Shown here piece after piece: positions 26,411-53,200 of a stretch of 56,598 nt of DNA. The notes beneath the pieces are model-generated. The model worked only from the letters and a program-made list of their open reading frames with translations. It ran no database searches and had not been told where the DNA came from. The position numbers were made by a program, and so were the translations under genes. Source of the DNA: an uncultured Candidatus Saccharibacteria bacterium. GTDB taxonomy: Bacteria > Patescibacteriota > Minisyncoccia > Phycocordibacterales > Zambryskibacteraceae. The DNA is taken from NCBI GenBank assembly GCA_964603485.1, contig CAZRVE010000001.1, forward strand, positions 42,342 to 98,939, given 5' to 3'. Position 1 is the stretch's first letter, and every line of letters starts with the position of its first letter.

Positions 26411-26485
26411 GGCGTAGTGGCGAAGTGGTAACGCAGCGGTCTGCAAAACCGCGACGCAGGGGTTCGATTCCCCTCTACGCCTCCA
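26411..26485 (+). tRNA. tRNA-Cys (anticodon GCA), encoded CCA
   Basis: Acceptor ggcgtag/ctacgcc, anticodon loop ctGCAaa, T-loop TTCGATT, discriminator U. Confidence 0.85.
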
Positions 26486-26523
26486 TCTTAAACCGGTAAT
26501 TTCTTTTACTGGAAAAGACGAAC

Positions 26524-26608
26524 GCCCGGGTGGTGAAATGGTATACACGGAGGACTTAAAATCCTTTGCCCGTTAAAAGGCGTGTGAGTTCGAGTCTCAC
26601 CCCGGGCA
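26524..26608 (+). tRNA. tRNA-Leu (anticodon TAA), long variable arm
   Basis: Acceptor gcccggg/cccgggc, anticodon loop acTTAAaat, T-loop TTCGAGT. Confidence 0.8.
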
Positions 26609-26710
26609 CTTGGTTTTACGTTTTCAATTGTTAATATGCATCCGTAACTGTTTTGGTAGGTATACAGATCGCGTGGTAGAAATAAGGCGTAGTAGGTAAA
26701 ATTAAAATAT

Positions 26711-26783
26711 GCATCCATAGCTCAGCTGGTAGAGCAGATCCCTCTTAAGGATAAGGTCGCAGGTTCGAACCCTGCTGGGTGCA
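26711..26783 (+). tRNA. tRNA-Lys (anticodon CTT)
   Basis: Acceptor gcatcca/tgggtgc, D-arm agctcagctggtagagc, anticodon loop ctCTTaa, T-loop TTCGAAC. Partial 5' duplicate (atatgcatcc) ~60 bp upstream. Confidence 0.8.
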
Positions 26784-26869
26784 CAAGATAGAAAAATATA
26801 AACTACTTTATATTTTTCGATACTTGTGCAGGTCGGAAGCATGTCCTGCTAGAAAGCAGGACAGCTGAG

Positions 26870-27110
26870 ACAGGGTCGTGAGATTTTTCTTGTGACGACA
26901 AGAAAAATACTCCTGACCACAAGTCTTTTGTGCAGGGCGCAGTGATGTTTTTGTTTGAGCGTAGCTCAAGGCAAAAACCACGAGCCGGGGTCGCGAGATT
27001 TTTCCGTCAGGAAAAATACTTGTGACCACACATGGGGACCAAAGTCATGTTTTGTGACCACAAGACTTCTGCGCATGGTGCACTGATATGTTTATTTGAA
27101 TGTATTTTTT
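26870..27110. repeat. Two tandem ~110-120-bp units with conserved hairpins (compensatory changes) in ORF-free inter-tRNA spacer
   Basis: Unit 1 ...gggtcgtgagatttttcttgtgacgacaagaaaaatactcctgaccacaag...tgcagggcgcagtgatgtttttgtttga. Unit 2 ...ggggtcgcgagatttttccgtcaggaaaaatacttgtgaccacaag...tgcgcatggtgcactgatatgtttatttga. Stems atttttcttgt/acaagaaaaat versus atttttcc/ggaaaaat. Confidence 0.6.
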
Positions 27111-27141
27111 ATTTTTCTATATATGCTAAAGTTCTACCCAT

Positions 27142-27222
27142 GCTGGGGTGGTGAAATGGCAGACACGCTTGCCTTAGGAGCAAGTGCCGTAAGGCGTGGA
27201 GGTTCAAGTCCTCTCCCCAGCA
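27142..27222 (+). tRNA. tRNA-Leu (anticodon TAG)
   Basis: Acceptor gctgggg/ccccagc, anticodon loop ccTTAGga, variable arm, T-loop TTCAAGT. TTGAAT-N16-TATATA promoter upstream. Confidence 0.8.
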
Positions 27223-27337
27223 CACGTAGTGTGCTTGAGCAAAACAATTGATTGTTTTGCGTGAGAGGACTTGAAAACCTTGAGTATCTCGGCTTGCCGG
27301 GACGAAAGGTGTACCGCTCCCGTAGGGAGAAAGATTC

Positions 27338-27571: not shown

Positions 27572-28666
27572 ATGATTATCATCGACTGGGTTTTCATCAT
27601 CTTACTGATTGGGTTCCTCCTGATCAGTTGGAGTTCGACTGTCGCATTTGTTCTTTTCCTCTTTCTCGTAGCGGTCTCTTTTCGATGGCTGGCGAGAATG
27701 GGTCGCTTCTTCCTTGCGGTACCGGTAAACTCCTTTGCACTTCTCACAAGAATTGCAAACAAAGATACCGATGTCACAAAGGGTGGTGGCGATGTGTTCG
27801 ATATCGCTCACTCCGTCCCAGGGAAGATCATCAACAAGGGGTCCACACCCGAAGACTTGATGTCTTGGGAATTCAAGGATGGCGCAGAAGAACGAGACAT
27901 TCTCAACTTCATCCTACTTCGATACTTAGGTATCCAGTGGATCGGAGTCTTCTCGACAGCTCGACTCAATGACGTCAAAGACTTACGTCTACGACGGAAT
28001 CCTGAAGAAGACGTGTACGGGGTGAAGGATCGAACGAAGGAAACTCCCTTTGTCTTTTTCTCAGAAAACCCCGCCGTTGTCTTGAAGGGGATCGAAACTT
28101 CCGATGGACTCGGCATCGACCTGCGCTTCACCTTCATAGCTGAACGTACTCGTCCGCTTTTCTCCGTGGTCCGAGTCGCCGACGTCTATGCGGTGGTGAC
28201 AACGAAGGTTCAGGAAGCAGTCATCACCGTTACCGGAGACTACTCGGCACATGAAATCGTCAAAGGTAAGGACAGCAGCAAGATCAAGAAGAAAATTGTC
28301 GCTGTCCTTGAAGACCCCAATTTCATCGAAGAGGTTCTCCGAGCAACAGGCCTGACTCTCTCTGAAATCGACCTCAGCGATATCAATTTCGATGAGAAAA
28401 CCCGATTAATCATCGAGACGCAGGCTGCGGCAGAAGCGGAAGCTCAGCGTCTCAGGGTTGAAGCTGCTGGTAAAAGGGATGCAAAACTCTTGGCGGTTGA
28501 AGCCGATAAGGCAGAAATCGACCAGGTCATCCTCCCTCTCGCAAACCAGCCTGGTGCAGCGGCAATTATGGCTGCAAAAGCGTATCGTGACAACACAACA
28601 GTTACCACGTACGCGCCAGGAGGAAATGCCGGCCTCCTCATCAATCCAACAGAACCGAAAAAGTAG
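27572..28666 (+). CDS. SPFH/band-7 (stomatin/HflK-like) membrane protein
   Basis: N-terminal TM helices, SPFH-like core, then Ala/Glu-rich coiled-coil ETQAAAEAEAQRLRVEAAGKRDAKLLAVEADKAE. Start at ATG 27572 with GGAGA SD. Confidence 0.65.
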   Translation: MIIIDWVFIILLIGFLLISWSSTVAFVLFLFLVAVSFRWLARMGRFFLAVPVNSFALLTRIANKDTDVTKGGGDVFDIAHSVPGKIINKGSTPEDLMSWEFKDGAEERDILNFILLRYLGIQWIGVFSTARLNDVKDLRLRRNPEEDVYGVKDRTKETPFVFFSENPAVVLKGIETSDGLGIDLRFTFIAERTRPLFSVVRVADVYAVVTTKVQEAVITVTGDYSAHEIVKGKDSSKIKKKIVAVLEDPNFIEEVLRATGLTLSEIDLSDINFDEKTRLIIETQAAAEAEAQRLRVEAAGKRDAKLLAVEADKAEIDQVILPLANQPGAAAIMAAKAYRDNTTVTTYAPGGNAGLLINPTEPKK

Positions 28667-28796
28667 TGATGTTCCTCATAAGTCGACCCTCACAGGGGTC
28701 GACTTTTTCTTATAAGAGATATTGACAAAGCATTATAAAAAATGGTATAATACTATTAGAGATCTTTGACTGACTTACCTACTACAGGAGACTTCA

Positions 28797-30203
28797 GTGT
28801 CAACCACTCATCTTTGGCCGAAGGGGCTCAAGCGAACCCCACGGACAATCGTTGGGGCAACAGTCATCGTTGTTGCGATGATTGCATTCTTCAGACTCCT
28901 GTCCGGTGTCCCGAATGTATTCCGAAGCAATGGACAGAGTAGGGCGCAGGCTTGCCTCACGGCAGACCTCGCTGAAGCAGCCGGCACGCAAGACACCATC
29001 GCACAGACGCTTTGTGATTCTCCAGGTATTCCCTGGGGAACAATTGGGCTCGTTCTACTTGCGATCATCGCACTCTCCTCCCTCGTCTTCTTCATCCGCC
29101 GCAGAATCGGTAAAGAAAAGGCTGGTGAAGGAAAAACTGCTGAAGGAAAGATTGTGAGATGGATATCTTCCATTGTAACACTCGGGGGGGTTCTCAAGAT
29201 TACGATCCTCTACGGACTCCTCAACCTCTTGGCATTCATCCTGTGGCCCGATAAGTACGGGACATGGATGTATCAAATGTGGTTCTGGCAGATGCAAGGA
29301 GGTATTGTAATCGTTGCAATCCTTCTTGCGCTGATGTCAGATACGAAGACAAAGGTCATTGGATCTATTGGTGCGCTCATCTTAGGCATCTGGATCGTCT
29401 CAGTGGGATGGAAATGGGGGTCAGAAGAGTTCAAGAAGAGAACTTCTGGCACCACGACCACAGCTACACCAACCCCAACAACCGGAACTCCATCTGGAGC
29501 ATCTGCAAGTTGGGATTGGGCATCCATCAACGGCCCCGAAAAGGACACCGTGATGGCCGCCTTCCCAGGCGACACCGTCATGTGGAAGATTGCTGCAGCC
29601 GAGAGTGACTACACCCAGTTCAGGGTGGATAGCAACGGCGACAGTTCAATCGTCCAGAACAAGGATGGCTTCGATGCATACGGTATCTTCCAGATCAGAA
29701 AATCGGTCTGGGACAACTGGTGCAAAGAACGAGGCTTCGACATCATGAAGACTCATGGCAACATTGGGTGTGCCAAAGCAATCAAGGCTAAGTATCCGAA
29801 AGGAAACCCTTGGCTCGCAAGCGCGCATCTGTGGCGCGACAGCACTACCGTCGACCCATGCGCTCAGTATGCGCGATACGGTGGAGTAAGCATGCTCGAC
29901 TTTGTCCGTAAGGACACCGTCATCACAACGGGAGATGTCGATTTCACCCGAAGGATCATGACGGAAAATATGGTTGTCGATTGGGTTTCGGTAAACTTCC
30001 GCACGGACTACGTGGTACGGTACGGATACCTTGACCCAATTACCAATCAGATTGTCGTGGCAGAAGACACGATCGAAAAGGAGAAGTGCCCTGAAGACAA
30101 CCGTCTTCCGCGCTACCCTCTCTGGGTCGAGTTCAAATCCTTGGACGCTGATCCGATCATGATCGAGATCACGTTCTCAAAGGACAAGCGTACTCGGCAG
30201 TAG
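28797..30203 (+). CDS. Polytopic membrane protein (about 6 TM) with Thr/Pro linker and C-terminal lysozyme-like domain showing C-type (GH22-like) lysozyme signatures
   Basis: C-terminal region AAESDYTQFRV...DAYGIFQIRKSVWDNWC...GCAKAIKAKYPKGNPWLASAHLW parallels hen lysozyme FESNFNTQA...DYGILQINSRWWC...[23 protein letters not shown] (catalytic Glu and Asp positions conserved). Could alternatively be an SLT/GH23-like domain. Confidence 0.6.
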   Translation: MSTTHLWPKGLKRTPRTIVGATVIVVAMIAFFRLLSGVPNVFRSNGQSRAQACLTADLAEAAGTQDTIAQTLCDSPGIPWGTIGLVLLAIIALSSLVFFIRRRIGKEKAGEGKTAEGKIVRWISSIVTLGGVLKITILYGLLNLLAFILWPDKYGTWMYQMWFWQMQGGIVIVAILLALMSDTKTKVIGSIGALILGIWIVSVGWKWGSEEFKKRTSGTTTTATPTPTTGTPSGASASWDWASINGPEKDTVMAAFPGDTVMWKIAAAESDYTQFRVDSNGDSSIVQNKDGFDAYGIFQIRKSVWDNWCKERGFDIMKTHGNIGCAKAIKAKYPKGNPWLASAHLWRDSTTVDPCAQYARYGGVSMLDFVRKDTVITTGDVDFTRRIMTENMVVDWVSVNFRTDYVVRYGYLDPITNQIVVAEDTIEKEKCPEDNRLPRYPLWVEFKSLDADPIMIEITFSKDKRTRQ

Positions 30204-30250
30204 GAATTCACATGGGCGCCCGCAAAAGCGAGGCGCCCTTTTCATATACA

Positions 30251-30281
30251 AAAATCCCCCGACATGTGTCGGGGGATTTTT
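30251..30281. terminator. Bidirectional intrinsic terminator, family 3 (CCCCCGACATGTGTCGGGGG with A/T runs) between convergent genes
   Basis: aaaaatcccccgacatgtgtcgggggattttt. Near-identical element at 47902-47929. Degenerate at 38772-38810. Confidence 0.7.
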
Positions 30282-30287
30282 AAGAGA

Positions 30288-30557
30288 TTAGTTTAGCGGG
30301 TAGATATTAGTGTTAAGTCCAACTGAACTCAAAATAAGACGAATGAGTCCAAATGCCGTCACCATAATAAACATACCTACCAAACCCCATACCATCGCTT
30401 TCTTTCCTTCGGCCCGTGCCTTCTCGTCGGAAGCTCTTACAATAAATTGAAGACCACCGTAAAGAAAAACTAAGAGTGCAACAGAAAACAAAAGAATCAG
30501 AGCCGGATTCAAGATCACATCATTGATCTTGTTTAGAAATGGGACAATGGCTGGCAT
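30288..30557 (-). CDS. Small two-TM protein, paralog 1 of VirB2/TrbC-like family (no cleavable signal peptide)
   Basis: 89 aa. TM1 - ASDEKARAEGKK - TM2, same core motif as paralogs 2-6. Confidence 0.55.
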   Translation of the reverse strand: MPAIVPFLNKINDVILNPALILLFSVALLVFLYGGLQFIVRASDEKARAEGKKAMVWGLVGMFIMVTAFGLIRLILSSVGLNTNIYPLN

Positions 30558-30566
30558 ACAAACACA

Positions 30567-30923
30567 CTACTGAATTCGAGGAGTGTTGATTGTTCCACCA
30601 GTTGTATCAACTCCAAAGATTTCACCAATAAACTGGATAAGTCCCCATACTGCTGCCATCACGAAGAGTGCGACAACGCCCCAAATCATGATTCGCTTTC
30701 CTTCATCCTTTGCTGACTCATCACCTGCTGCAAGGATAAACTTTGCCAATCCCCAGAAAAAGAAGAGAAGGGCGAGCGCAGTAACAACTGGGATAAGAAG
30801 ATCCACAATGTTCTGTATATCTGTTACAGCCTGATTAAAATTACCAAGCTGGACACCCTGTCCTTGCGCAAAAGCTAAAACTGGAAGAGCGTAAAGCGCG
30901 ATTGTTCCTAATACTTTCTTCAT
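30567..30923 (-). CDS. Secreted two-TM small protein, VirB2/TrbC-like paralog 2
   Basis: Signal peptide ...LAFA|QGQ. Motif FFFWGLAKFILAAGDESAKDEGKRIMIWGV. Confidence 0.6.
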   Translation of the reverse strand: MKKVLGTIALYALPVLAFAQGQGVQLGNFNQAVTDIQNIVDLLIPVVTALALLFFFWGLAKFILAAGDESAKDEGKRIMIWGVVALFVMAAVWGLIQFIGEIFGVDTTGGTINTPRIQ

Positions 30924-31029
30924 TGTAATAACGTTATTCTATCAACTACTTATAAACTAAGACCATTTTGTAAGATACGCCTTTTATCGTACCAGAAAAA
31001 ACCAAGTTTTGGAATACTCTGGGGATAAA

Positions 31030-31371
31030 TTATGGATTTGGATTAAGAGGCAACCACTGTACAGGACTGCCTCCAAAACTTGCATCTTGTAGAAAAGAAA
31101 TTATTCCAACAAGAGAAGCCATTACAAAAAGCGCGATGACACTCCAGAACATAAATCTCCTCCCTTCAGCGATTGCTTTTTCATCACCCGCCGCACGAAT
31201 AAACTTTGCAATGCCCCAGAAAAATAAGAGAAGAGCAATTGAAGCAGTTAGGATAATAAGATCTGCCGCGATCCCTCCGAGCGCATAACTCCCAAAGAGT
31301 TGTTGAATACTTGCAATCTGTGCGTGAGCAAAAAAAGGAACGAAAAAGAATAGAGAAAGAATAATTTTCAT
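31030..31371 (-). CDS. Secreted two-TM small protein, VirB2/TrbC-like paralog 3
   Basis: Signal peptide ...FAHA|QIA. Motif LFFWGIAKFIRAAGDEKAIAEGRRFMFW. ATGA overlap with paralog 4. Confidence 0.6.
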   Translation of the reverse strand: MKIILSLFFFVPFFAHAQIASIQQLFGSYALGGIAADLIILTASIALLLFFWGIAKFIRAAGDEKAIAEGRRFMFWSVIALFVMASLVGIISFLQDASFGGSPVQWLPLNPNP

Positions 31372-31763
31372 GGTGTTGAAGTAGGAAGAAGTGGTAAACC
31401 AATTGGCCCTGGACCAAATAGTGAGTTAGAGAAAAATTGCAGAAATCCCCATATAGAAAACATTACGAAAAGAATGATAACTCCCCAAAAAAGAAACTTT
31501 TTTCCGTCTTGAACTTTCTTTTCGTCTCCTGCGGAATTAATAAACTTTGCAATACCCCAAAAGAAGACGAGAACCGCAACCGTACTCACAAAAGGAAGAA
31601 GGATGCCTATAAAGTTGGTCGCATGACATACAAAATCTTTAAAATCTGAGGGAGGCGCAGTCGGAGCGTTTAAATTACCAGGAATACACGCCGCATATGT
31701 AGTGATAGGTAAAAATGATGCAACAATGATCAGAAGTGTGAAAATGAATACAGAATATTTCAT
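31368..31763 (-). CDS. Secreted two-TM small protein, VirB2/TrbC-like paralog 4
   Basis: Start taken at MKYSVF (ATG 31763), not the 41-codon upstream extension in the ORF track. Motif VFFWGIAKFINSAGDEKKVQDGKKFLFWGV. Confidence 0.6.
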   Translation of the reverse strand: MKYSVFIFTLLIIVASFLPITTYAACIPGNLNAPTAPPSDFKDFVCHATNFIGILLPFVSTVAVLVFFWGIAKFINSAGDEKKVQDGKKFLFWGVIILFVMFSIWGFLQFFSNSLFGPGPIGLPLLPTSTP

Positions 31764-31764
31764 A

Positions 31765-32148
31765 TTAAGTAATCTGCTGAATAGTGCTCTCAATTGCAAG
31801 AGAAATCGCCCATGCACCGAGAAGAATCGCTGTACCAATTGCTGCATAAAGAAATGCCTTCTTAGCAGTTGCAAGCTTTGTTTCATTACCCCTTGAAGTC
31901 ACAAAGAGAAATCCAGAGTAAATAATAAAGATTACTGCAATCACTCCGCCCACTGGCAAAATTACATCTGTAATTACTAGATTAATAAATGCGTAGAGAG
32001 AGTTCGTTCCATTCTTGAGAGGGTTCGGAATATTTATTGGATAATTTATTGGTGGAGGTGGTGTTCCACCTCCAGCTTGAGCGAATGCGATCTGAGCGCG
32101 GACGAGAAGGAAGGTAATTGCGGTAAGTAAGTAGTTAAGATATCTCAT
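31765..32148 (-). CDS. Secreted two-TM small protein, VirB2/TrbC-like paralog 5 (divergent)
   Basis: Signal peptide ...IAFA|QAGGG, Pro-rich N-terminus, hydrophobic helix, SRGNETKLATAKK loop, second helix. Confidence 0.5.
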   Translation of the reverse strand: MRYLNYLLTAITFLLVRAQIAFAQAGGGTPPPPINYPINIPNPLKNGTNSLYAFINLVITDVILPVGGVIAVIFIIYSGFLFVTSRGNETKLATAKKAFLYAAIGTAILLGAWAISLAIESTIQQIT

Positions 32149-32169
32149 AGTATTTATTTTATCACGAGA

Positions 32170-32589
32170 TTATGGCCTTAAAATAAAGAGCCCCGGTTGA
32201 TTTGGATCAAGAAGCGCCACAATCACAGTATTTACAATTACCCATCCCGCAATTACAAAAATCAATCCGATGACTATCTTTGTAAGCATGCTTTTCGCCT
32301 GCTTTACCTTACCTTCATCACCCCCTGAAGACAGCATCAAAAATCCGGCATAGGCAATCCCTATCGCTGCAAGAGCAGTTGAAAGCACGATAAGAAAATT
32401 AATGATATTAACTCCAAGTCGAATAAGATCATCAAAATGGCAATCGTTTGTCGAACCAGTCCCTGGTGCTGGTGCCGGATCACACACAATAAGATAGCCA
32501 GGGGTCTGTGGTGTACTTGCCTGAGCAAATAAAGAAAGTGGTACCGTAAGCGCTACAAGGACGAGAGTGAATATAGTGATAAATCTCAT
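32170..32589 (-). CDS. Secreted two-TM small protein, VirB2/TrbC-like paralog 6
   Basis: Signal peptide ...SLFA|QAS. Motif AYAGFLMLSSGGDEGKVKQAKSMLTKIVIGL. Confidence 0.55.
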   Translation of the reverse strand: MRFITIFTLVLVALTVPLSLFAQASTPQTPGYLIVCDPAPAPGTGSTNDCHFDDLIRLGVNIINFLIVLSTALAAIGIAYAGFLMLSSGGDEGKVKQAKSMLTKIVIGLIFVIAGWVIVNTVIVALLDPNQPGLFILRP

Positions 32590-32593
32590 AGTA

Positions 32594-33895
32594 TTACTTT
32601 ACTGTAGGAAGAAGTTTTGTAATTTCATCTTGCGCTCGAGAAACAGCTTGTTCAGTGCGCACGCGACCTCCAGTGATTGACTCAATCATCTCCTTAAAGA
32701 TTGGCGCAGTCTTATCACGATCAGGGTCGAGCCACCCCTTAGACCAAATCGCACTTTGGAAAAAGAGGGACTGAAACGCGTCACTTCCTGGGGTTGCAAG
32801 CAAATCACGGCGTACAGGAGGAAGGCCTGTCGCGCCTGAAAATTCTTTTACCGCTTGCGTAGAAGATATTGCTGAAATGAGCTTGAAAGAAGTATTGAGA
32901 TTTTTCGTATTACGAGTCACTGCAAAGCCGGCAATCTCACCGAAAGTGATTACCTTATCGGCGGTTCGAGACTGTGGCATAGGAGCAACATCAAAGTTTA
33001 GGTTTGGATTCTTGAGACGCAAAGCCTTTGCTTCTGATGCAAAGCCAAAATACACCGCTAAGTCACCCGACAAAAACATTGTTTGAGATGCAGGAAGAGA
33101 GCGATTCCACGAGTAATGAGCCTTAGTTGGATTAGAAAATTCGGTGTAAAAATTAATTGCGGAATGCGCAGGATTTACATCGTATCCATAATTATCAGTA
33201 AGAGTAGCGAGATAGCCATCCCTTGTACGTTTTACAATATCCTTATTCCCTGCCTGAAAAATAAGAGTGGAAAGAATTTCTTTTGCATTAGTAATATTTT
33301 CATATTCACCAAGTGCAATAGTTGCTCGAGTAATGTTTAGGGAACCATCCTTTCGAGTAAGATCTTTTGAAAGAGTGTAAAACTCATCCCAATATTTCGG
33401 AGGTTGAGAAAGCGATGCTCCAGAGAAGATATCTCTATTCCAATACATCACCATTGGGTCAATCAAGAACGGAAGTGCGATAATTCCATTTGGTTCCAAG
33501 AATATCTCCCCTTCTTCGATAAAAGTATCTTTGAAAAGACGCTCAGAATAACTTTCAAAAGGAATAAGGAGTAGTTTATTTCGATGTCTCACAATTGCAT
33601 CCTGGGCAAGAATTACCACGTCAGGACCTACACCTGCAGCAAGGGCCTCTACAAAGTCGGCATCAAAATCTTCTTCTTTCTTATATATATATGAAATTCC
33701 TACAGTCTTATCCTTCGCAATAGGAAGATCTCCAATTTCTGCATTAAATACTGATTCAGGAAGAGAGCCCCACACAAGGATGGTCGTCTTCCCCTCTCCT
33801 CCACGACCCGCAATTGCAAAAGCGAACACGCCAGCCAATATGAAAAAGGCAAAAACGCCGGTAAGAATCAACTGAAATTTACTCATATTACTCAT
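32594..33895 (-). CDS. Membrane-anchored extracellular solute-binding protein (ABC-type, family-1/sugar-binding-like)
   Basis: 433 aa. N-terminal TM anchor then periplasmic-binding-protein-like fold pattern. 4 nt upstream of paralog 6. Confidence 0.6.
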   Translation of the reverse strand: MSNMSKFQLILTGVFAFFILAGVFAFAIAGRGGEGKTTILVWGSLPESVFNAEIGDLPIAKDKTVGISYIYKKEEDFDADFVEALAAGVGPDVVILAQDAIVRHRNKLLLIPFESYSERLFKDTFIEEGEIFLEPNGIIALPFLIDPMVMYWNRDIFSGASLSQPPKYWDEFYTLSKDLTRKDGSLNITRATIALGEYENITNAKEILSTLIFQAGNKDIVKRTRDGYLATLTDNYGYDVNPAHSAINFYTEFSNPTKAHYSWNRSLPASQTMFLSGDLAVYFGFASEAKALRLKNPNLNFDVAPMPQSRTADKVITFGEIAGFAVTRNTKNLNTSFKLISAISSTQAVKEFSGATGLPPVRRDLLATPGSDAFQSLFFQSAIWSKGWLDPDRDKTAPIFKEMIESITGGRVRTEQAVSRAQDEITKLLPTVK

Positions 33896-34419
33896 ACCTT
33901 TTTTCCTAGTATACCGTAGTGATGTGCTCCCGCATCAATCTCCTTTAAAACTTGAAAACCAGATTCTTGCGCTAACGATTCTGCATTGGCTTTTGGAAAC
34001 AAGGCATCACCCTGAGGCCCCATACCTCCAAAAGAATCGGCCCAATCAACAATAAGCAGCATTCCTCCCTTAGGAAGAATACGCGCTGCCTCTTTTATGA
34101 CAGGTGCCTTATCTTTAATTTGAAAAAGAATATTTGAAATTACTACCGCATCAATACTTCCGTCTTTCAAGTGAGTACCATGAGGCTTTTCCAGGTCACC
34201 ATGAATTACTTCAATATTCATGAGACCTTCGCCTCGAGCTTCATTTTTTAATTTAGCGAGAAGATCTTTTTGGATATCAATTGCATACACACGACCTGCA
34301 TCTCCCACCGCCCTTGCAAGTGCTTTTGCGTGATGTCCAGAACCTGATCCAAAGTCAGCAACAGAGGCACCCAGAGGGAGCGCCATTTGAGAAATATTTT
34401 TCTGAGGATCAGAGAACAT
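33892..34419 (-). CDS. Class I SAM-dependent methyltransferase
   Basis: Motif I VADFGSGSG, motif post-I AIDI. 4-nt overlap with SBP start. Confidence 0.75.
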   Translation of the reverse strand: MFSDPQKNISQMALPLGASVADFGSGSGHHAKALARAVGDAGRVYAIDIQKDLLAKLKNEARGEGLMNIEVIHGDLEKPHGTHLKDGSIDAVVISNILFQIKDKAPVIKEAARILPKGGMLLIVDWADSFGGMGPQGDALFPKANAESLAQESGFQVLKEIDAGAHHYGILGKKV

Positions 34420-34471
34420 ACTCGAAGTATGAAGCTAATAGTACCACACAATATTTCTATATTTCTAAAGG

Positions 34472-36943
34472 TTACAGGCAGATAACCGAAGCAAGTCCAT
34501 CACCATCGCGCAATTTCATAATACGCACACCCTGAGTCTGTCGTCCTAGCTCTGGAATTTCTTCAATTGAGGTACGAATGACTTGCCCCTTCTTAGACAT
34601 TGCGACAATTTCTTCTTCAAGTGGAGTGACCACGCCCGCTGCCATGAGTTGTCCGGTTTTTGGAGTAACGCTTGCGGTCTTTATACCACTTCCACCACGG
34701 TTTTGAATTTTATATTCTTCGATATCTGTCTTTTTGCCGTATCCATTTTGGGAAACCACGAGGAGCATAGGCTTTTCAGCACCCTTTGAGACAACGTGCG
34801 CTCCGATGATACTGTCACCCTTTGGAAGCTTCATTACTCGTACTCCGCCTGCGCTTCTTCCCATTTCTCGAACATCGCTTTCTTTAAAGCGTATTGATTG
34901 CCCTTTCGCAGATACCAAGATAATACTGTCACCCTTCTCAACAAGAGAAGCCGAGACAAGGAGATCGTCATCATCAAGACGAATTGCGATGATTCCGCTT
35001 GCACGCACATCAGCAAAGTTTTTGGCAGCCACTCTCTTTCCTACACCCTTTTTTGTTACAAGATTCAAAGAAAGTCCTTCTTTACCTTTTACATCTTTTG
35101 GCACGGGAAGGATTGAGGTGATTTTTTCTTCACTTCCGAGCGCAATAAAGTTCATTACCGACTTTCCTCGAGTAGCACGCTTACCCTCAGGGATGTCATA
35201 CATTTTTATTTGGTACGCCTTTCCTTTATCGGTAAAGAAAAGAAGGTCGCTATGAGTTGAGGCCGTCAAGAATTGTGTTACAAAATCTTCTTCCTTCGTA
35301 TCCAAATCAATTACACCTATTCCGCCTCGTTTTTGCTTTTTATATTCATCAGGATTCGTCCTCTTAATGTAGCCACCTTGAGTGAGCACGAGAGTATTTT
35401 CCTCATCGGCAATAAGATCTTCTACAGAGAAAACCTTGGCTCCTCCTTTTACAATTTTTGTCCGACGACTATCTCCATATTTCTCTTGGATATCAGCCAT
35501 CTCTTTCTTAATGATTGCCAGAACCTTCTTTACGCTCGCAAGAATACCCTTGAGCTCTTCGATGAGTGCCTGAACATCCTTAAGCTCGTCTTCAATCTTC
35601 TTACGCTCAAGGCCGGCGAGTTTCTGCAAACGCATTTCGAGAATTGCAGTTGCTTGTAGATCTGAAAACTTGAAAGCCTTCATGAGTCCCGCATGAGCTT
35701 CCTCAACTGTCTTTGAAGCACGGATGAGTTTAATAATCTCGTCGATGTGGTCGAGTGCTTTCTTGAGACCCAAGAGGATATGCTCACGTTCCTCAGCTTT
35801 TCTTAAATCAAATTCGGTACGACGTTTGATGACATCCTTTCGGTGAGCCACAAATTCCTCAAGAACATTCTTAAGTGAAAGGGTCTGAGGAATGCCATTT
35901 ACAAGTGCAACAATATTAAAATGAAATGTCTCTTCAAGTTGAGTATGCTTATAAAGAGAGTTAAGAACTTTCTGTGGCTGACTTCCGCTCTTGAGCTCAA
36001 TCACCACTCGAATATCTTTTGTAGATTCATCACGAAGCCCCTTAATGCCTTCTATTTTCTTATCACGAACCAATTCAGCAATTTTTTCAATCAAAGTTGC
36101 CTTGTTTACTCGAAATGGAATTTCAGTAATCACAATTTGAAATGCGCCTAATTTTGTTTCAGTAATTTCGGCAACTCCGCGCACCACCACACCACCTCTG
36201 CCAGTTGCGTATGCGTGGTGAATATCCTTTTCATTAAATGCAATACCGCCAGTTGGAAAGTCTGGTCCTTTTACAAAATCGAGAAGGTCTTCTGTGGTCG
36301 CCTCTGGGTTATCTACCAAAAAAGAGACCGCGTCACACACCTCATTCAAATTGTGAGGTGGAATGTTTGTTGCCATTCCCACTGCAATACCAAGAGTTCC
36401 GTTTAATAGAAGGTTTGGAGCCCCAGCTGGAAGCACTGTCGGCTCTTGCTTCGTTCCGTCATAGTTTGGGCGGAAAAGCACCGTCTCCTTCTCAATATCA
36501 CGAAGAAGTTCACTTGAGAGCTTACTCATTTTTGCCTCTGTGTATCGGTAGGCCGCAGCGTTATCTCCATCGATTGAACCAAAGTTTCCTTGACCCAATA
36601 CCAGTGGATAGCGAGTTGAGAAGTCCTGTGCGAGTTTTACCATTGCATCATAAACTGAGGCATCTCCGTGCGGGTGATAGCTTCCCAACACATCTCCAAC
36701 TACCGTAGCTGATTTACGAAACTTTGCAGAAGCTGAAAGCCCCATTGCATTCATCGCAAATAAAATTCTGCGATGCACCGGCTTTAAACCGTCGCGCACG
36801 TCAGGAAGTGCCCGGTCAGTAATCACGGACATTGCATAGTCAATGAACGACTCCTTCATTTCGGAGACGATTGAGCGCTCTACAACAGAGACTCTATTGC
36901 CTGAGATCTTTTCAGGACTCTCTTTTTTTTCTTCTTTTGCCAT
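34472..36943 (-). CDS. gyrA: DNA gyrase subunit A
   Basis: 823 aa. Active-site Tyr region, [11 protein letters not shown], GyrA-box-like C-terminal beta-pinwheel repeats. Confidence 0.9.
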
Positions 36944-37970: not shown

Positions 37971-38095
37971 TGTGCCTCAAGTATATCACTTTTTACCAAA
38001 TCGCATAGACCCGTAAAATCAAGCGAGACAATCAAATAAACCCTTATTTATAGCCATAAAATAAACCATCTTATAAAAAAACCTAGAAAATATAT

Positions 38096-38123
38096 TGACA
38101 AATATCTTGAACGTGATATAATA
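38096..38123 (+). promoter_or_regulatory. Near-consensus sigma70 promoter with extended -10
   Basis: TTGACA-N16-TGaTATAAT read directly. Divergent from the MBL-fold gene. Confidence 0.55.
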
Positions 38124-38129
38124 GTAAAA

Positions 38130-38810
38130 GATTGAATTTTGTAATTCTCTGTTGTCCTGCCTGAGGGAGCGTCCCTAGGCGGGAACGCTGCGGACGAGAT
38201 GTTGCCAATGTGCCTTCTCGCTCGCGAACTCGTCAACCAGACACCAGTTCCGACAAGGAGCGGACTTATGTGGAAACTCGTCGAACGTTGATTTCCCCTT
38301 TGCCTAACGGGTACTCGGGGACGTGTCAGAAAACCCGGTAGAGAAATGCCTCACGGCCGCACCCTATGGCCCACAAACTGTGGAGCCACGGAACGGTAGG
38401 GCCGTTCGCAAATCTCAAAGAGAGCTCGCGCTCTCTGGCGTTACGACACGAGCGCCACATCAGACGATTTCACACAAAGAGTTCACAGAAGCGCCCGCTG
38501 TACCCGTCGTACACCGAAGGCCCGCACATCGACGCGCGAGCCTTCGGTGACGACACCCTTCGTTCAGAACTCATCGGAAAGAAGGAGGTTTCATGCCGCC
38601 GTAGCGAGGATTCACTCCCGCCCACACGCGAACAACTCCGACGACAGCTCAATCCTTCTGATCCAACCATGGAGGCACGCAACGTGACCCCGTTCACGTA
38701 GGTACTGCACCATAGGCATGGGCCAACGAGCCTCAGACACAGAGATTTAATCCGGGAGCAAGACTCCCACAGACCCCTCCCCGACACGTCGGGCGGGGGT
38801 CTTATTTTTT
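38130..38810 (+). ncRNA. Candidate large structured non-coding RNA (~680 nt, G+C-rich, ORF-poor), unassigned family
   Basis: Between strong promoter (38096-38123) and imperfect hairpin + T-run terminator (38772-38810). Many local hairpins (ccacaaactgtgg, gaacggtagggccgttc, gagagctcgcgctctc). Only low-complexity ORFs of 111 aa or less without SD. G+C far above flanking genes. Confidence 0.3.
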
Positions 38811-38956
38811 ATAGACATTTCCATAATTTTTATGTAGAATCCTTTCCGTCTTTGCTTGATTGCAGAGATTTTTAATTACCACCCGAAGAGCTAACCTTGC
38901 CCCTGAGACGTGTCTTCCCGAAAAAGCATAGAGCAAACCTCTCCGTAAGTAATCAA

Positions 38957-41655: not shown

Positions 41656-41835
41656 AATAACTATTTTATCACGAACAAAATATCGAGCGAGGGTTCTCCT
41701 TCTCAAACCTCGCGCAGTTCCAATCACATTGGAACGAGCGGAGTAAATCTTTAGTAAAAGATTATACGTGTTTGAGAAGCAGAACCCGAGTGAGCCCTTG
41801 TGTCAAAGGGGAGCTCCATACTACAATCTACGCAA

Positions 41836-42459
41836 ATGAATGAAGAATTTTCTCCACACGTAAAAGAAAGTACTGAAAAAGAAAATCTCTCGCAAAAAAA
41901 TGAGAAGAAAGAAAAAAGTTTTTTGCGAGAACTCGCAGAGTTTGCAGTCATCGCTTTTATAGTCGTCATTCCTTTCCGAATGTATGTTGCACAGCCATTC
42001 GTAGTAAATGGCGCCTCTATGGATCCTACTTTTGAAAATGGAGAGTACCTTATCGTTGACCAACTCACCTATCACTTCAAGAAACCCCAACGTGGATCAA
42101 TCCTCATATTTAAATACCCAAACGACACCTCAAAATACTTCATCAAGAGAGTTATTGGACTCCCAGGAGAAACTGTCCGTGGAAAAGAGGGTGCGATCAC
42201 TATCATCAATAAAGAAAATCCAGAAGGAATCACTCTTGAAGAGCCGTATATAAAACTTCAAAAAATGGATTCGTTTGAAACAAAACTTGGAAATCGGGAA
42301 TACTTTGTGATGGGAGATAACCGTTTAGGAAGCGCGGATTCACGTATGTGGGGAGCGCTTCCTGAAGAAGATGTGGTGGGACGTCCCATCCTCCGCCTCT
42401 TCCCTTTCTCTCGAATTAACATACTGCCTGGGGATTTTGAACTTTCTTCACAAATATGA
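41836..42459 (+). CDS. lepB: Signal peptidase I (S26)
   Basis: VNGASMDPTF (Ser box), KRVIGLPGE (Lys box), GDNRLGSADSR. Start could be GTG 41800. Confidence 0.8.
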   Translation: MNEEFSPHVKESTEKENLSQKNEKKEKSFLRELAEFAVIAFIVVIPFRMYVAQPFVVNGASMDPTFENGEYLIVDQLTYHFKKPQRGSILIFKYPNDTSKYFIKRVIGLPGETVRGKEGAITIINKENPEGITLEEPYIKLQKMDSFETKLGNREYFVMGDNRLGSADSRMWGALPEEDVVGRPILRLFPFSRINILPGDFELSSQI

Positions 42460-47930: not shown

Positions 47931-48983
47931 TTAGAGCACTACGACTTCTGGGAAGAGTACCACTCGAAATACGTACGCAAGAACGCAGATTAAAATAATG
48001 AGAAATATTCCAAATCCAATGTGTTTCGGATGCTGTTTCCTAAGCTCTATTCCAATCATAAGCGCCAATGCGAGAAGGACAAAAGCGCCCAAAATCAGGT
48101 ATACGGAACTCACTGCTTTCTTTGGACTTGCAAGCATCTCTAACGCAAAACTTTTTTCCTCTCCTTGGGACATCTGCCCTGATTCCGCACTCACAGAATT
48201 ACCTCCTTCAACATTTTCCGCCTCAATATAGGTCTCGGTTTCACCTAAGACACGAGTCGGCTTTGTGATAATCGGAGAAGTTGTTGGAGACGGAGTTGCA
48301 ACAGTAGGCTTCACGACAGATTTCACTTGAGCTTTTAGAGTCGTGGTGCTTGTGGTCGCGCGAGTCTGAGCATTTACTGGAGTCACTTTTAAAGCATTCT
48401 CCACCAAGCGCGTAGGAGTATTGCGCAAAGGCTTTCCAAACATCTGTACTACAAAAATAGTCTCTCGTCCGTTGTAATACCCCTTTGCGGTTGCAATACC
48501 AATCTCTGTAAATTTACTATTAAGAATATTGGCACGGTGTCCAGGAGAATTCATCCATGCACTATCAACATCAGTAGAATCCACGAAGTTAATCGCCAAG
48601 TTTTCTCCCGCATACTGAAAGTCATACTGAGCTTCTTTAAACCAATACCAAGGAGTCTTACCCTCAGGGCTTGTATGAGCAAAATACCCCTTGCTTGCCA
48701 TGTCATTTGCCTTCTTCTGGGCCGCCACCTCAAGGAGTGGGTTTGTAGTGAGAGAAGAAAGTTTATTGTTTACTCGGTTATTATTTGCAAGCTCCACAAG
48801 AGATCTTGGGATTACCGCAGAAAGAAGAGAGGTCTCTTGAATTACAGTTACATGAAGAATTCCAACAAAGAAAACAAGGAGGGCGATGAAGGAAAGAATT
48901 CCAACTGACGCCTTTCGCATAATATGGGGAACGTATTCATTCTCCTCGTTCGGAATAAAATATTTCTTCACAAAAGCTTTCAT
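47931..48983 (-). CDS. CAP/SCP/PR-1-like domain protein with N-terminal TM, Thr/Ser/Pro-rich linker and C-terminal hydrophobic tail
   Basis: GYFAHTSPEGK...GENLA...WMNSPGHRANIL CAP signatures. Confidence 0.7.
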   Translation of the reverse strand: MKAFVKKYFIPNEENEYVPHIMRKASVGILSFIALLVFFVGILHVTVIQETSLLSAVIPRSLVELANNNRVNNKLSSLTTNPLLEVAAQKKANDMASKGYFAHTSPEGKTPWYWFKEAQYDFQYAGENLAINFVDSTDVDSAWMNSPGHRANILNSKFTEIGIATAKGYYNGRETIFVVQMFGKPLRNTPTRLVENALKVTPVNAQTRATTSTTTLKAQVKSVVKPTVATPSPTTSPIITKPTRVLGETETYIEAENVEGGNSVSAESGQMSQGEEKSFALEMLASPKKAVSSVYLILGAFVLLALALMIGIELRKQHPKHIGFGIFLIILICVLAYVFRVVLFPEVVVL

Positions 48984-49026
48984 TAGCTATAATTATACCA
49001 CATCTAAAGAATTTAGACAATATGCC

Positions 49027-49632
49027 CTATTCGCGCACCCTTTCCGTAAACACCACCAAACGCTTATCGTAGGTCTTCGTCTTAGGGTCCCACGTACCAT
49101 CACATGTTATCAGATTAAGCATCTCGCCTGAAGCCTCTCCAAATATCTCCTCAAGGGGAGGGTTCTCATAATCCACGAGCCGTATTTCCCTTACCATAAA
49201 AGCCAGCCTCTCTCCCCCGTCCGTCTCAACATATACCTTGTCCCCAATCCTCAGTTGTTTAAGATTAAAAAATACAGCAGGCCTTCCTCCTCCATTATCG
49301 AGATGTCCCGCAAGAACCGCATTTCCAATTGCCCCAGGAATAGGTCCGTATCGATACCAGCCCACATCTTCATATTTAACCGGCACAGCCATATTCCCCG
49401 ACTTAGTCTTACCTACCGGAAGCACAGCACCTTCAATATTGGCGACAGGAATAGTAACCCTTATTGGCGTGGATGTTCCTACATCACCTGTAAATATTCC
49501 ACCCTCCGGAACCGGAACTGAGACAAGATTTCTTGCATTGTTTTTCTCTATCGCAACAAATATCAGACCCAACAAAATAAGAAATACCGCATTTGCAACA
49601 AGTATTTTTTTATAACGGGAAAAAAACATCAT
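49027..49632 (-). CDS. Sortase family transpeptidase
   Basis: N-terminal TM. Catalytic triad context AVLAGHLD (His), LNLITCDG (Cys), RLVVFT (Arg). Confidence 0.75.
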   Translation of the reverse strand: MMFFSRYKKILVANAVFLILLGLIFVAIEKNNARNLVSVPVPEGGIFTGDVGTSTPIRVTIPVANIEGAVLPVGKTKSGNMAVPVKYEDVGWYRYGPIPGAIGNAVLAGHLDNGGGRPAVFFNLKQLRIGDKVYVETDGGERLAFMVREIRLVDYENPPLEEIFGEASGEMLNLITCDGTWDPKTKTYDKRLVVFTERVRE

Positions 49633-50195
49633 AATTGTTCTGTCTCAAGTGTACGCAAAAGACTGAGGAGAAGATTAATGAGCTCAGTAAGAGCTTTAAT
49701 CTGGGATTGCTGATCTGCGTTAAAAGACGGAACATTATCTGTATTTGGTTTCGCAAAATAAGTGACCACATAGGAGGCGTTCCCCCCTTGATAGGATCCG
49801 TCCACAATAGAGATACCTATTTCTTTAAAATCGGGTCGTAAGATATTGGCCCGATGAGAAGCGGACCGCATCCAATCAGATATGATCTCTGATTCTGTTT
49901 TAAAGTTCACTGCGAGATTCTCTCCGGCATTGTCGTAAAGATATCCCGCATCTTCAATAAAAGACCATGGAACTCCTTCAAGGGACTGCGTATGTTTGAG
50001 CTCCCTTAAAAACGTGAGGGCCGTAGCCTTGTTAAGAGCTGCAAGACTCAGTTTGTTATTTTGAACCAAAGGCGCCAGTCCTGCAGAAATCCTCTCATCA
50101 TTTATCTCCTCAAGAATACGTTCTGTATTGAGAGCATAGGAAGGCAACGGGAGGAAAAGTACAATAAAGAGGAGAATTGTAAATCGCTTCATCAT
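49629..50195 (-). CDS. Secreted CAP/SCP/PR-1-like domain protein
   Basis: Signal peptide. GENLAVNF...WMRSASHRANIL. ATGA overlap with sortase gene. Confidence 0.7.
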   Translation of the reverse strand: MMKRFTILLFIVLFLPLPSYALNTERILEEINDERISAGLAPLVQNNKLSLAALNKATALTFLRELKHTQSLEGVPWSFIEDAGYLYDNAGENLAVNFKTESEIISDWMRSASHRANILRPDFKEIGISIVDGSYQGGNASYVVTYFAKPNTDNVPSFNADQQSQIKALTELINLLLSLLRTLETEQL

Positions 50196-50276
50196 CCTAT
50201 TATACAGCTCAAATACAAAAGAATCCCAAGCATACGCGAGGGATTCTTTTTGAACTTATTTCCTATCTGAGAGAGT

Positions 50277-53200
50277 CTATTTTTGAAGCTTAAGAACCCG
50301 GAATGAGATGTAATTAAGCGCGAGGAGAGCGATAATGCCAGAAAGGATAATCGCGACAGCATTTACTGCAGAAGTCTGAGGTTCTGCTATTGGAGCGTTA
50401 CCTGTATCTGGAAGACCAGGGAGCTCTGTGAAGGCGCCTGCTACCTCTGAGGAGCTAGGAACTAAACTTCCTCCTGAAGAGCCACCCCCGCTCCTACGAG
50501 ACTGTCCTGTGGTATTTGTTGAAGAACCACCTCCACCACCACCGTCACCACCGCAACCATCTGTACAATCGGAGACCCCAATGAAGTCATCGTTAGTGAC
50601 AGTACACGTCTTTGATTCCCCAGCGCCCATAGTGCCAGAACATTCGGTTGAGTAACTTACGTTATATCCTAGAGAATCATTCTCAGTAACAGAGTATGTT
50701 CCAGGGTCAAGAGTGATTGTGATTCCAGTTGAAGAACCCTGGACAGAACCTTGCGATGGATTTGTTCCAGCAATCGTGAAGGTGAAGTCCGTAGATGTAG
50801 CTGTTCCAACCAAGTTATCATTTATCACATTCTTAATGATAGTCAGAGTTCCTTTTGTAGGACCGCCATCACAATCGCTGTCACAGTCAACAGGAGGCTT
50901 TTCACACGTATCAGCATTCACGCTTAAGGTTGTTGACGCAGACTTATTAAGAGTTCCCTCTTGCCCATAAGAAGCAACCGCGTATGCAGTATTCTTCACA
51001 TCACAGACATTTGGCAATATATTGAGCGCCTCTACTGCATCAACGTCGTATCCGTCAGCCTCTTGCTCAAAGAGAGTCTTATTAGAATCCTCTGTAAGAC
51101 GAATCTTTGACGTAGTCGCAAGGGAACCAAGATCAACCGCCTGGTCTCGAGTAACTGTTCCCAAAATGGTCCAGCCAATTCCATTCCAAGCTTCTACCTT
51201 TACCTTCTCATCAGGATAAGTTGTTCCTCCGGTAATTTCATAAACTTTTACGTCATTACCAGGACCGTTAAATATTGTTCCTCCGAAGGTTACTACAATA
51301 CTTCCATTATCGAATCCGAGAGAGAAGAATGAGTTTGGCACAACCGTATCATATGGATTACCTGCGGACTGCGGTGCTCCAAACATCTTCGTTGGATCTG
51401 TTCGATCAGAAAGGATGTTTGTTCCGTTCTTCCTCTTTGCTTGATTATTTTGCTCAGAACCAGACGCCCACTTTAGATTTGCATTCCATGCATCAAGAGA
51501 GGCGATGAATGAAACACTTCCAGAAGATCCTGAAGTCTGTGCTCCTAAATTCCAGGTAACGGTACCAGGAGTGGTGAGGACTTCTCCACCAAGAGTCGCA
51601 GAAACAAACGAAAGTCCTGCAGGAATTGGATCCGTAATCACAAGATTTGAGACGTTGCCATTAGAAACCGCCCAGTCAATAGTGAAGGTAATTTCTCCCG
51701 TTGAAGTTGCGTAGCTTGCGGATTTTGAGAGATTGACAGTTGGAGCATCAGGACATTTTTCATTCCATACAATCACATAGACATTAGTATCTTGAACATT
51801 AATCATTACAGATGAAGAGGTTGCATTTCCTTCTGCATTTGCAAAGCTACTCCCCACACTGTAGCCATTAAGTCTAAATTTTCCAGGTTGACACTGTCCT
51901 CCGATTGGAATTACGAGCGCATCTGCTGGTTCTGTTGCATTTGTACGCTCTGCAACTTGTGCCGTACTTTGGAAATCAATGAGTTCTGGACTTTCCCATA
52001 CGAAGTTATTGCCAGAATTAAGAGTCGCATTACCGCTTCCTGCACTCGTTACATAGTCAATTCCAAATTGATTTCCTTCGCTCGACTGTGAATTTGCAGG
52101 CTCGCCGTTGATGTATTTCTTTACGATTACTCGGGAAGTCTCATCCTGAGGATCATCATTTCCGCAATCTTTTGCAGTCCAAGAAAGGTTGAACAAGAGA
52201 CCTCCAGGATTATTTTCCTTAGAAAGGTTTGGACGCGCGAGGTTCTTCACTCGAATTTCAAGGGTGTTTGATCCATCCACAAGAAGACTTGTTACATCCC
52301 ATGTGTCAGCCGAAGAGTGATTATCTTCAGAAGCATCTACCATAGGAGGAATGCCAGGTTGTCCGTTTACCCAAACCTCATACTCATTATCAGCAGCAAT
52401 CTTTAGAGATCCTGATTCTGGAGTACCGACAACATTAAACGTCCTTGTAAACGTTACCCATTTATCGACTGTCCAGTTTGCATCATATGGATCTTCTGAC
52501 CAAATCCATTTTGCATTCGCATCACCAACATTTGCTTCCCACACACTGCCACCAGGACCATCAAGGGCTTGGATTGCAGAAACAACGGAGACTGGTACAG
52601 AGTTGGTGTTTGGAGTTGAAGTAGCTCCATCAATATTTACAAGAGTGATTTTTGTATCTTCATCACTGACGACTGACCCCAAAGTAGGATTACAGTCTGG
52701 CGCACATTGCACACTCGCATTATCAAGAAATACCCCAAGAGAATTCGAGCTATTAAGCCCCGCATCAGCAAAAGCAACTCGGGTCATTGTGGAAGTTGCA
52801 GTAACCTTGACCACATAATCTTTCCAGATATTTGTAGTTTCAGAAGATCCGTCTCGAGAAATTGTCCCCGTAGCGGAAGTTCCTCCCCACAAAACACTGA
52901 GCATATTATCCTGAGTTCCTGTACCTGGCCTTGGTGCGAAAGCAAATTTCACAACATACTCTTTTCCAGGAACGGTTGGAATGTCTTGGTAAATTCGAGC
53001 TGATGCAGGCTCTCCACTCAATGCACTATCCGGGCCACCCCAATCTGTATCAAGCTCTGCATACTGAGCCCCTTCGTCCGCAAGCCATAGAGGATTTACT
53101 GATCCGCCTTTATGGAGTTCAAGATTTGCGGTGTCAGGAATAAAGACACTATTAAATTGAGTCGAAGATGGAAGAAGCCACTCTACGCCCCAACCAAGCT

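Follow-up and report, generated by a model that had tools for sequence, protein, structure and literature searches.

Tandem arrays of small VirB2-like pilin genes have already been described in Patescibacteria. A survey of 3,035 genomes, searched with PF18895 and other profiles, recorded 441 arrays of 2–11 pilin genes with a mean identity of 25% and a maximum of 54% (Quinonero-Coronel et al. 2025, PMC12102498). Southlakia epibionticum ML1 carries six PF18895 genes (SEML1_0014–0019) inside its type IV secretion system (T4SS) cluster, and these are essential by transposon sequencing (Wang et al. 2023, PMC10633639). PF18895 genes are also found among the highly expressed unknown genes of Paceibacterales. 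On the patescibacterial pilin genes, a 2025 review goes no further than a 'potential to elaborate conjugative pili' in a monoderm, and a PNAS 2024 perspective describes what the T4SS does in Saccharibacteria as 'completely unknown'. As a comparison, the survey cites the tandem trwL (virB2) copies of the Bartonella Trw system and the virB2 paralogues of Anaplasma (PMC12102498). Here we analyse six such genes (P1–P6) at positions 30288–32589 of a 56.6-kb stretch of DNA (hereafter the window; 56,598 nucleotides of contig CAZRVE010000001.1) from an uncultured Candidatus Saccharibacteria bacterium.

Compared with the published patescibacterial arrays, the window adds no new kind of element: it holds chromosomal, tandem, small and divergent paralogues of the same PF18895 family, and their pairwise identities of 19–50% fall within the published range. 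P2 also shows the same weak side matches to PF04956 and DUF6112 as SEML1_0014–0019. The anatomy of the locus, however, differs. In contrast to S. epibionticum, the array lies outside a T4SS cluster. It is preceded by a gene for a solute-binding protein (SBP; 70 of 72 loci), follows a fixed order of paralogue types, ends in a leaderless gene and contains a putative internal promoter. The main text of PMC12102498 contains none of the words 'solute', 'substrate-binding', 'gyrA' or 'gyrase'. Judged from sequence comparisons, the locus is a conserved chromosomal operon of the class Paceibacteria (Parcubacteria; nearest named relatives Ca. Zambryskibacteria), and its six paralogues fit distinct, non-redundant subunits. 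The counts of related loci given here come from a scan of one genome per species that found 562 relatives, and from the best 80 loci among these; 64 of these arrays are complete.

The interval is filled by six co-directional open reading frames (ORFs) on the minus strand (Table 1). For P3, the MKYS start was chosen and a longer ORF of 172 aa was rejected because it overlaps P2. The P3/P4 junction is an ATGA overlap, the sole stop/start overlap among the array junctions; the remaining gaps are 21 nt (P1–P2), 1 nt (P2–P3), 106 nt (P4–P5) and 9 nt (P5–P6). An earlier note on this DNA had described an array of six divergent small proteins of 89–139 aa with two transmembrane segments, linked by overlapping stop and start codons. 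The ORFs, hydropathy and identities bear out the array itself; the overlapping linkage is confined to a single junction.

Table 1 Features of the array and its flanks. Positions are those of the window.
Feature	Position	Strand	Description
gyrA	34472–36943		upstream of methyltransferase, SBP, array
Methyltransferase gene	33892–34419		between gyrA and SBP gene
Membrane-anchored MalE-like SBP gene	32594–33895	-	433 aa
P1	32170–32589	-	139 aa; PF18895 member; signal peptide …SLFA↓QA; Pro-rich N-terminal extension
P2	31765–32148	-	127 aa; PF18895 member; of the six paralogues, nearest to classical TrbC/VirB2
P3	31368–31763	-	131 aa from MKYS start; PF18895 member; N-terminal Cys pair
P4	31030–31371	-	113 aa; alone below Pfam cut-off; clear P3/P5 paralogue
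Intergenic P4–P5	30924–31029	-	106 nt; putative internal promoter
P5	30567–30923	-	118 aa; top PF18895 score; candidate core subunit
P6	30288–30557	-	89 aa; PF18895 member without leader; last in array
Intrinsic terminator hairpin AAAAAUCCCCCGACA/UGUCGGGGGAUUUUU	30250–30281	-	closes array
Lysozyme-like gene, convergent with array	28797–30203	+	468 aa

Each of the six proteins consists of two hydrophobic segments with a short loop rich in Lys, Arg, Asp and Glu between them, as seen in hydropathy segments and in the alignment. A signal-like hydrophobic segment stands at the N terminus of P1–P5; P6 begins at the mature part and has the two hydrophobic segments only. The earlier note had listed five signal peptides ending in A-x-A↓Q. 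Five signal-like segments are indeed present, but the cleavage sites, which were read by eye from the sequences without a predictor, follow that motif only in P2 (AFA↓Q), P4 (AHA↓Q) and P5 (AFA↓Q), with LFA↓Q in P1 and TYA↓A in P3. Similarly, the proposed shared core survives in part: the FFWG..AKF..AGDE motif is strict in P3, P4 and P5 but degenerate in P6, P2 and P1, and just four columns are invariant in the alignment of the six.

Local pairwise identity among the paralogues ranges from 19 to 50%, with P3, P4 and P5 forming a tighter group at 43–50% (P4 shares 50% identity with P3 and 45% with P5); the cores of these three genes constitute a repeat, D1, at the DNA level. Profiles of the P2 type and the P5 type show these two subgroups to be homologous from end to end: hhalign gives a probability of 97.5% (E 5.8e-12), and the alignment takes in the signal peptide, the first helix, the hairpin and the loop. 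Because these profiles align and all six proteins match PF18895, the grouping of the paralogues is not a chance one. The AlphaFold2 model of P5 (predicted local distance difference test score (pLDDT) 76.8) is a hairpin of two helices, residues 26–64 and 69–103; a Foldseek search of the PDB with this model gave no match with E < 1. The N-terminal extension of P1 holds a Cys pair (CDPAPAPGTGSTNDC) that is kept in the orthologues of the related loci L002, L005 and L008. Conserved Cys pairs are found in the N-terminal extensions of both P1-type proteins (spacing 8–17 residues) and P3-type proteins (about 20 residues), and probably form disulfide loops that lie on the exposed face. In P3-type proteins, the cleavage region (…YAAC, …FSAC, …AASC) has a faint likeness to a lipobox.

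The family assignment rests on profile scores. The earlier note had pointed, without naming it, to a Pfam family of T4SS pilins; it exists as PF18895 (T4SS_pilin), for which the gathering cut-off is 26.6 bits. Five of the six proteins pass (P5 45.9, P6 35.0, P2 34.7, P1 29.4 and P3 26.8 bits), and P4 stays under the cut-off at 19.0 bits. PF18895 is carried by all 120 P5 homologues among the matches listed, and an exhaustive HMMER search puts the size of the family at 63,617 representatives at 50% identity (E up to 1e-3). The build of the family, an optional signal peptide, an amphipathic helix and two hydrophobic helices with a charged loop, is found here, in P6 without the signal peptide. Matches to PF04956 (TrbC/VirB2; cut-off 27.9 bits) are limited to P2, at 26.7 bits (E 6.3e-6), and P1, at 14.5 bits; the same profile search gave no match for P3, P4, P5 or P6. 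Scores against NF045849, the Mycoplasma profile of pilin-like proteins of integrative and conjugative elements (ICEs), are 30.8 bits for P2, 22.1 for P1 and 19.4 for P5, all below the cut-off of 40 bits, and the P5-type profile gives a weak match to the pKM101 pilin TraM (E 0.053). On these scores, the six genes are PF18895 members of VirB2-like build, whereas PF04956 membership is not demonstrable. The TrbC/VirB2 pilin build that had been proposed for them thus holds for the hairpin architecture but not at the level of profile significance, PF04956 being reached only below its cut-off and VirB2 itself not significantly.

The likeness to TrbC/VirB2/TraA pilins (PF04956; structures 8cue/8exh and 8cw4) comprises a signal peptide, a hairpin of two helices with a short charged loop and a length of about 90–140 aa. 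Unlike those pilins, the array proteins have a loop about 8 residues longer, come from a monoderm organism as six paralogues rather than one major pilin, and are encoded without adjacent mating-pair-formation genes. Sequence identity to the archaeal conjugation-type pilin of the Ced/Ted systems (Pyrobaculum calidifontis, 8dft) is 6%. The Mbov_0395 family of Mycoplasma ICE proteins (NF045849) is likewise small, pilin-like and associated with a monoderm T4SS, with matches below cut-off; it is encoded by one gene of a mobile element instead of an array in the chromosome. The Bartonella trwL and Anaplasma virB2 genes are likewise adjacent, divergent VirB2-type genes of a host-associated bacterium. 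Those copies, however, are thought to diversify surface or antigenic properties, whereas the copies in the window are old ortholog groups of conserved order, with nonsynonymous divergence (dN) far below a saturated synonymous divergence (dS).

The nearest homologues of P5 come from Ca. Zambryskibacteria and other Paceibacteria. Three relatives (P5 identity 82%, 61% and 49%) share the gene order S1, LactB, gyrA, methyltransferase, SBP and 6–7 pilin genes. Each paralogue of the window is most similar to the gene at the same position in L002, L005 and L008. Identities to the positional orthologues in L002 are 66, 73, 56, 47, 82 and 84% for P1–P6; the P1 orthologues in L005 and L008 are 40% and 36% identical, and a second P2 orthologue is 51% identical. 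In the comparison of the window with L002, synonymous sites are saturated or nearly so (proportion of synonymous differences, pS, 0.50–0.85) and yield no usable dN/dS ratio, so dN alone was compared. It amounts to 0.27, 0.21, 0.36, 0.43, 0.13 and 0.10 for P1–P6, values within the range of neighbouring genes (GyrA 0.07, SBP 0.17, lysozyme-like 0.34), with P3 and P4 the fastest (0.36–0.43).

Among the complete arrays, 31 have six genes, 18 have seven and 7 have five. The dominant order of paralogue types across the 80 species is 1-2-3-5-5-6 or a close variant, with one to several P5-type copies per array and two or three in most. The last gene has just two hydrophobic segments, and thus no leader, in 58 of 64 (median length about 88 aa). 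This stable anatomy in Paceibacteria argues for non-redundant subunits, as does the retention of orthologues of each paralogue together with a dN far below saturated dS. The suggestion in the earlier note that the genes encode major and minor subunits is compatible with the positional orthologues and the fixed type order. Loci of the same Paceibacteria type (gyrA, SBP, pilin genes) are found in many metagenome-assembled genomes titled 'uncultured Candidatus Saccharibacteria bacterium' (L009, L013, L025 and others); these titles look like generic labels, not lineage assignments.

The order of the operon is gyrA, methyltransferase, SBP, P1–P4, putative internal promoter, P5, P6 and terminator, so the array is its distal part. 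The SBP matches SBP_bac_8 (E 1.2e-20) and also SBP_bac_1, and its PDB matches are sugar- or maltose-binding proteins. Its gene probably shares one transcript with the array, because its stop codon sits 4 nt before the start of P1. Across the related loci, the SBP homologue lies directly upstream on the same strand in 70 of 72, at a gap of -49 to +86 nt; a methyltransferase gene stands between gyrA and the SBP gene in only 42. In the window, the gap between gyrA and the methyltransferase gene (34420–34471, minus strand, 52 nt) contains TGTGGTACTAT about 25 nt before the ATG, resembling the extended -10 element of P5, and this site is a possible promoter for the methyltransferase–SBP–P1–P4 part of the operon.

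Most arrays have a gap of 80–150 nt before the P5-type gene; other junctions are short. By-eye alignment of 30 loci shows that these gaps share an extended -10 element (TGGTAnnAT or GTATTAT) and a -35 element (TTGnAA), and the P4–P5 gap of the window has a -35 TTCCAA (31009–31014) and an extended -10 TGGTACGAT (30986–30994). A generic promoter scan did not flag the promoter-like site preceding P5. In an unbiased count, the most frequent of the enriched 8-mer families in the gaps consists of TTATCCCC, TATCCACA and TAATCCAC. If one mismatch is allowed, TTATCCACA, the DnaA-box consensus, is present in 32 of 75 P5-preceding gaps; the shuffle mean is 3.4, and 32 of 367 non-coding segments from elsewhere contain it. 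The copy in the window, TTATCCCCA at 31020–31028, is one of two in the 56.6 kb. The P4–P5 gap thus holds a putative internal promoter with a DnaA-box-like motif.

Downstream of P6, a perfect inverted repeat with 15-nt arms (I2), followed by a U-run, forms the terminator. A generic terminator scan missed this hairpin; folding confirmed it (dG -46.7 kcal/mol, z = -7.8). A second GC-rich hairpin lies beyond it and serves the convergent gene. No Rfam family scored above threshold within or around the array.

In all six proteins the loop is rich in Lys and Arg and the N-terminal parts are not. Because of this and the positive-inside rule, the loop is predicted to be cytoplasmic, not facing the periplasm as the earlier note had assumed, and the hairpins should be N-out/C-out once the signal peptide has been cleaved. 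A cytoplasmic loop is expected of VirB2/TraA-type pilins in the membrane. Further indications come from relatives that exist as single polypeptides with 2–8 pilin units behind one signal peptide. The polyproteins P0127, P0128 and P0132 have 3, 6 or 8 tandem units behind a single signal peptide, and in locus L089 (9925–12387, 13152–14303) a pilin unit is fused to PKD domains beside a 718-aa PKD-repeat protein. These arrangements require units that are N-out/C-out with extracellular ends. The polyproteins and the PKD fusion belong to a different lineage resembling the candidate phyla radiation, again with no virB4 within 10 kb; in the clade of the array such fused-unit relatives are rare (1 of 445 ORFs).

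We hypothesize, with a probability of roughly 0.6, that P1–P6 are six non-redundant VirB2-like subunits that a T4SS encoded elsewhere assembles into a surface filament or conduit through which the cell makes contact with its host. P1–P5 would be exported by the Sec pathway and cleaved by signal peptidase I, and P6 would insert into the membrane without a leader, each subunit then residing there as an N-out/C-out hairpin with its Lys/Arg-rich loop in the cytoplasm. A T4SS of the monoderm type (VirB4, PrgI/VirB3, VirB6), encoded elsewhere in the genome, would extract the subunits and build a heteromeric surface filament or conduit across the cell wall, used in host-cell contact. The well-conserved P5 and P6 types would form its core. 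P1–P4, with their variable, Pro-rich and disulfide-looped N-terminal extensions, may occupy surface-exposed or specialised positions. Assembly into an actual filament is inferred.

At the level of genomes, VirB4 is recorded for seven of the nine array-bearing assemblies found in Table S1 of PMC12102498, and part 15 of that table records it in 22 of 25 Zambryskibacteria. The same survey places the virB4 of Paceibacteria usually near dnaA; in 1135 of 1948 assemblies it found the pilin genes beside virB4 and further genes of the T4SS, and it also accepted unlinked ones (PMC12102498).

Several observations weigh against this T4SS-assembled filament or conduit. The window contains no virB4, virB6 or virD4, and neither virB4-like nor other T4SS ATPase or VirB6 genes were found within 10 kb of the array in any of the 80 related loci. 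Two of the array-bearing draft assemblies are without a recorded VirB4 (Table S1, PMC12102498). Resemblance to experimentally studied pilins is below threshold or not significant throughout: with hhalign, the P2-type profile against Agrobacterium VirB2 (sequence checked against 8cue) reaches a probability of only 0.3 and an E value of 0.2. A pilus made of PF18895-type array proteins has been reported for no patescibacterium. Finally, covalently fused multi-unit relatives are, to our knowledge, unusual for filament subunits.

The same proteins could instead form a hetero-oligomeric ring or short tube of fixed stoichiometry in the membrane and cell wall, with one copy of each paralogue per unit, maybe as part of a T4SS channel. 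They would then not make up a long pilus polymerised from a single major subunit. Such an assembly would suit the conservation of paralogue-type number and order across species and the relatives with 3, 6 or 8 units in one polypeptide, since hairpins joined in this way are a typical feature of subunits that form rings, for example ATPase c-subunits. A structure-based table also gives a match of SEML1_0018 to the F1F0 subunit-c fold (Wang et al. 2023, PMC10633639). However, P5-type genes vary from one to several per array, a poor fit to strict stoichiometry, the putative promoter region of P5 suggests unequal expression, and the fusions are rare in the clade, which leaves a ring or tube unlikely in our judgement. 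The conserved place of the SBP gene directly upstream, mostly a few nucleotides from the first pilin gene and far more constant than that of the methyltransferase, could mean that array and co-transcribed SBP are a T4SS-independent envelope module, for example one that anchors or presents a sugar-binding receptor with which the cell recognises its host or captures nutrients. The window lacks any ABC permease or ATPase gene, virB4 is missing from the surroundings of all 80 loci, and another lineage has a pilin unit joined to adhesion-type PKD domains, all of which would agree with such a module. Yet the homologous array of Saccharimonadia sits in a T4SS cluster without an SBP, L089 likewise has none, and VirB4 co-occurs with the array at the genome level in seven of nine assemblies; moreover, closely packed genes in a conserved order are frequent in these small genomes, which makes linkage by itself weak evidence. 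We therefore consider this module improbable. A wider proposal, speculative and in our view rather doubtful, is that the Paceibacteria array is a self-contained module, conserved in gene order, of SBP, six distinct hairpin subunits and often the lysozyme-like protein. Having no physical link to virB4, this module might be partly or wholly independent of a T4SS; it would build a defined, heteromeric structure in the envelope that presents or serves a sugar-binding receptor, with the DnaA-box-like site timing P5 and P6, the two most conserved subunits, to the replication cycle.

The earlier note had also considered antigenic or phase variants of one filament. The paralogues would then be interchangeable forms of a single subunit, in line with a proposal made for the multiple VirB2 copies in Bartonella or Anaplasma. 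Their strong divergence, the high dN of P3 and P4 and the analogy raised in PMC12102498 speak for this; every paralogue, however, has its own same-position orthologue in distant relatives, and the leaderless type keeps its place at the end of the array. Neither inverted repeats flanking a promoter, as an invertible segment would have, nor simple-sequence tracts were found, and the dN values of 0.10–0.43 against saturated dS resemble those of neighbouring non-pilin genes. Taken together, these points make variants of a single subunit very improbable and favour six distinct subunits. Hardly credible, finally, are holin-like or immunity-type membrane proteins tied to the lysozyme-like neighbour. 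Small proteins with two transmembrane segments beside a lysozyme-like gene would suit them, but the lysozyme-like gene is convergent, has a membrane domain of its own and was detected in only 17 of 65 loci, no phage genes are present, and the Pfam assignment is to a pilin family. Phage holin identity was rejected on the signal peptides of five of the six proteins and on the chromosomal housekeeping context, conserved across the class.

The lysozyme-like protein has a multi-helix membrane N terminus, a Pro/Thr linker and a lysozyme-like domain (AAAES…YGIFQI). Its own Pfam match is weak (PF00062 Lys, E 0.009). Its positional orthologue in L005 scores 32.8 bits with PF18896 (SLT_3; cut-off 27), and a profile built from the orthologues finds the C-type lysozyme 1gd6 (E 5.6e-4). 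A homologue search returned 6 matches only, and the AlphaFold2 model has a pLDDT of 51.5. The protein is a candidate cell-wall hydrolase. Of the 20 related loci with this gene convergently downstream, 18 have it 46–237 nt away and two about 1.2 kb away. This gene and the preceding Band7-like gene, which together lie at 27600–30200, have a GC content of 0.48–0.53, compared with about 0.42 nearby; a cluster of four tRNA genes (26411–27223) precedes the pair, which is poorly conserved among relatives (59% and 30% identity to L002).

The window is otherwise a piece of ordinary patescibacterial chromosome, with genes for IF-2, RbfA, two ClpB-like proteins, SerRS, HisRS, TopA, RelA, ParB, DprA, FtsA and FtsZ and eight tRNAs in addition to gyrA; a signal peptidase I gene, which the proposed export of P1–P5 would need, lies at 41800–42459. 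The minus-strand cluster at 47931–55202, with genes for a sortase, two CAP-domain proteins and a surface protein of 1641 aa (SpaA-like prealbumin fold, DUF11, DUF4114), has the look of a sortase-dependent surface or adhesin module. Between the LactB-like and S1 genes, some 900 nt (37971–38896) hold neither a convincing ORF nor a convincing Pfam match and gave no Rfam match (E up to 1); this segment is partly GC-rich, and its similarity to the closest relative is limited to 88 nt. Positions 1–2000 have a GC content of 0.52, compared with about 0.43 elsewhere, and two ORFs (40–543 and 958–1497) with no Pfam match.

What is new here is the anatomy of the Paceibacteria array: a fixed order of types, a leaderless last gene, an SBP partner, an internal promoter region and separation from virB4. 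Patescibacteria account for a large part of the bacteria that are uncultivated. For the role of their T4SSs and pilin arrays, the anatomy described here yields testable candidates: a major subunit, the SBP as a structural part and regulation by DnaA.

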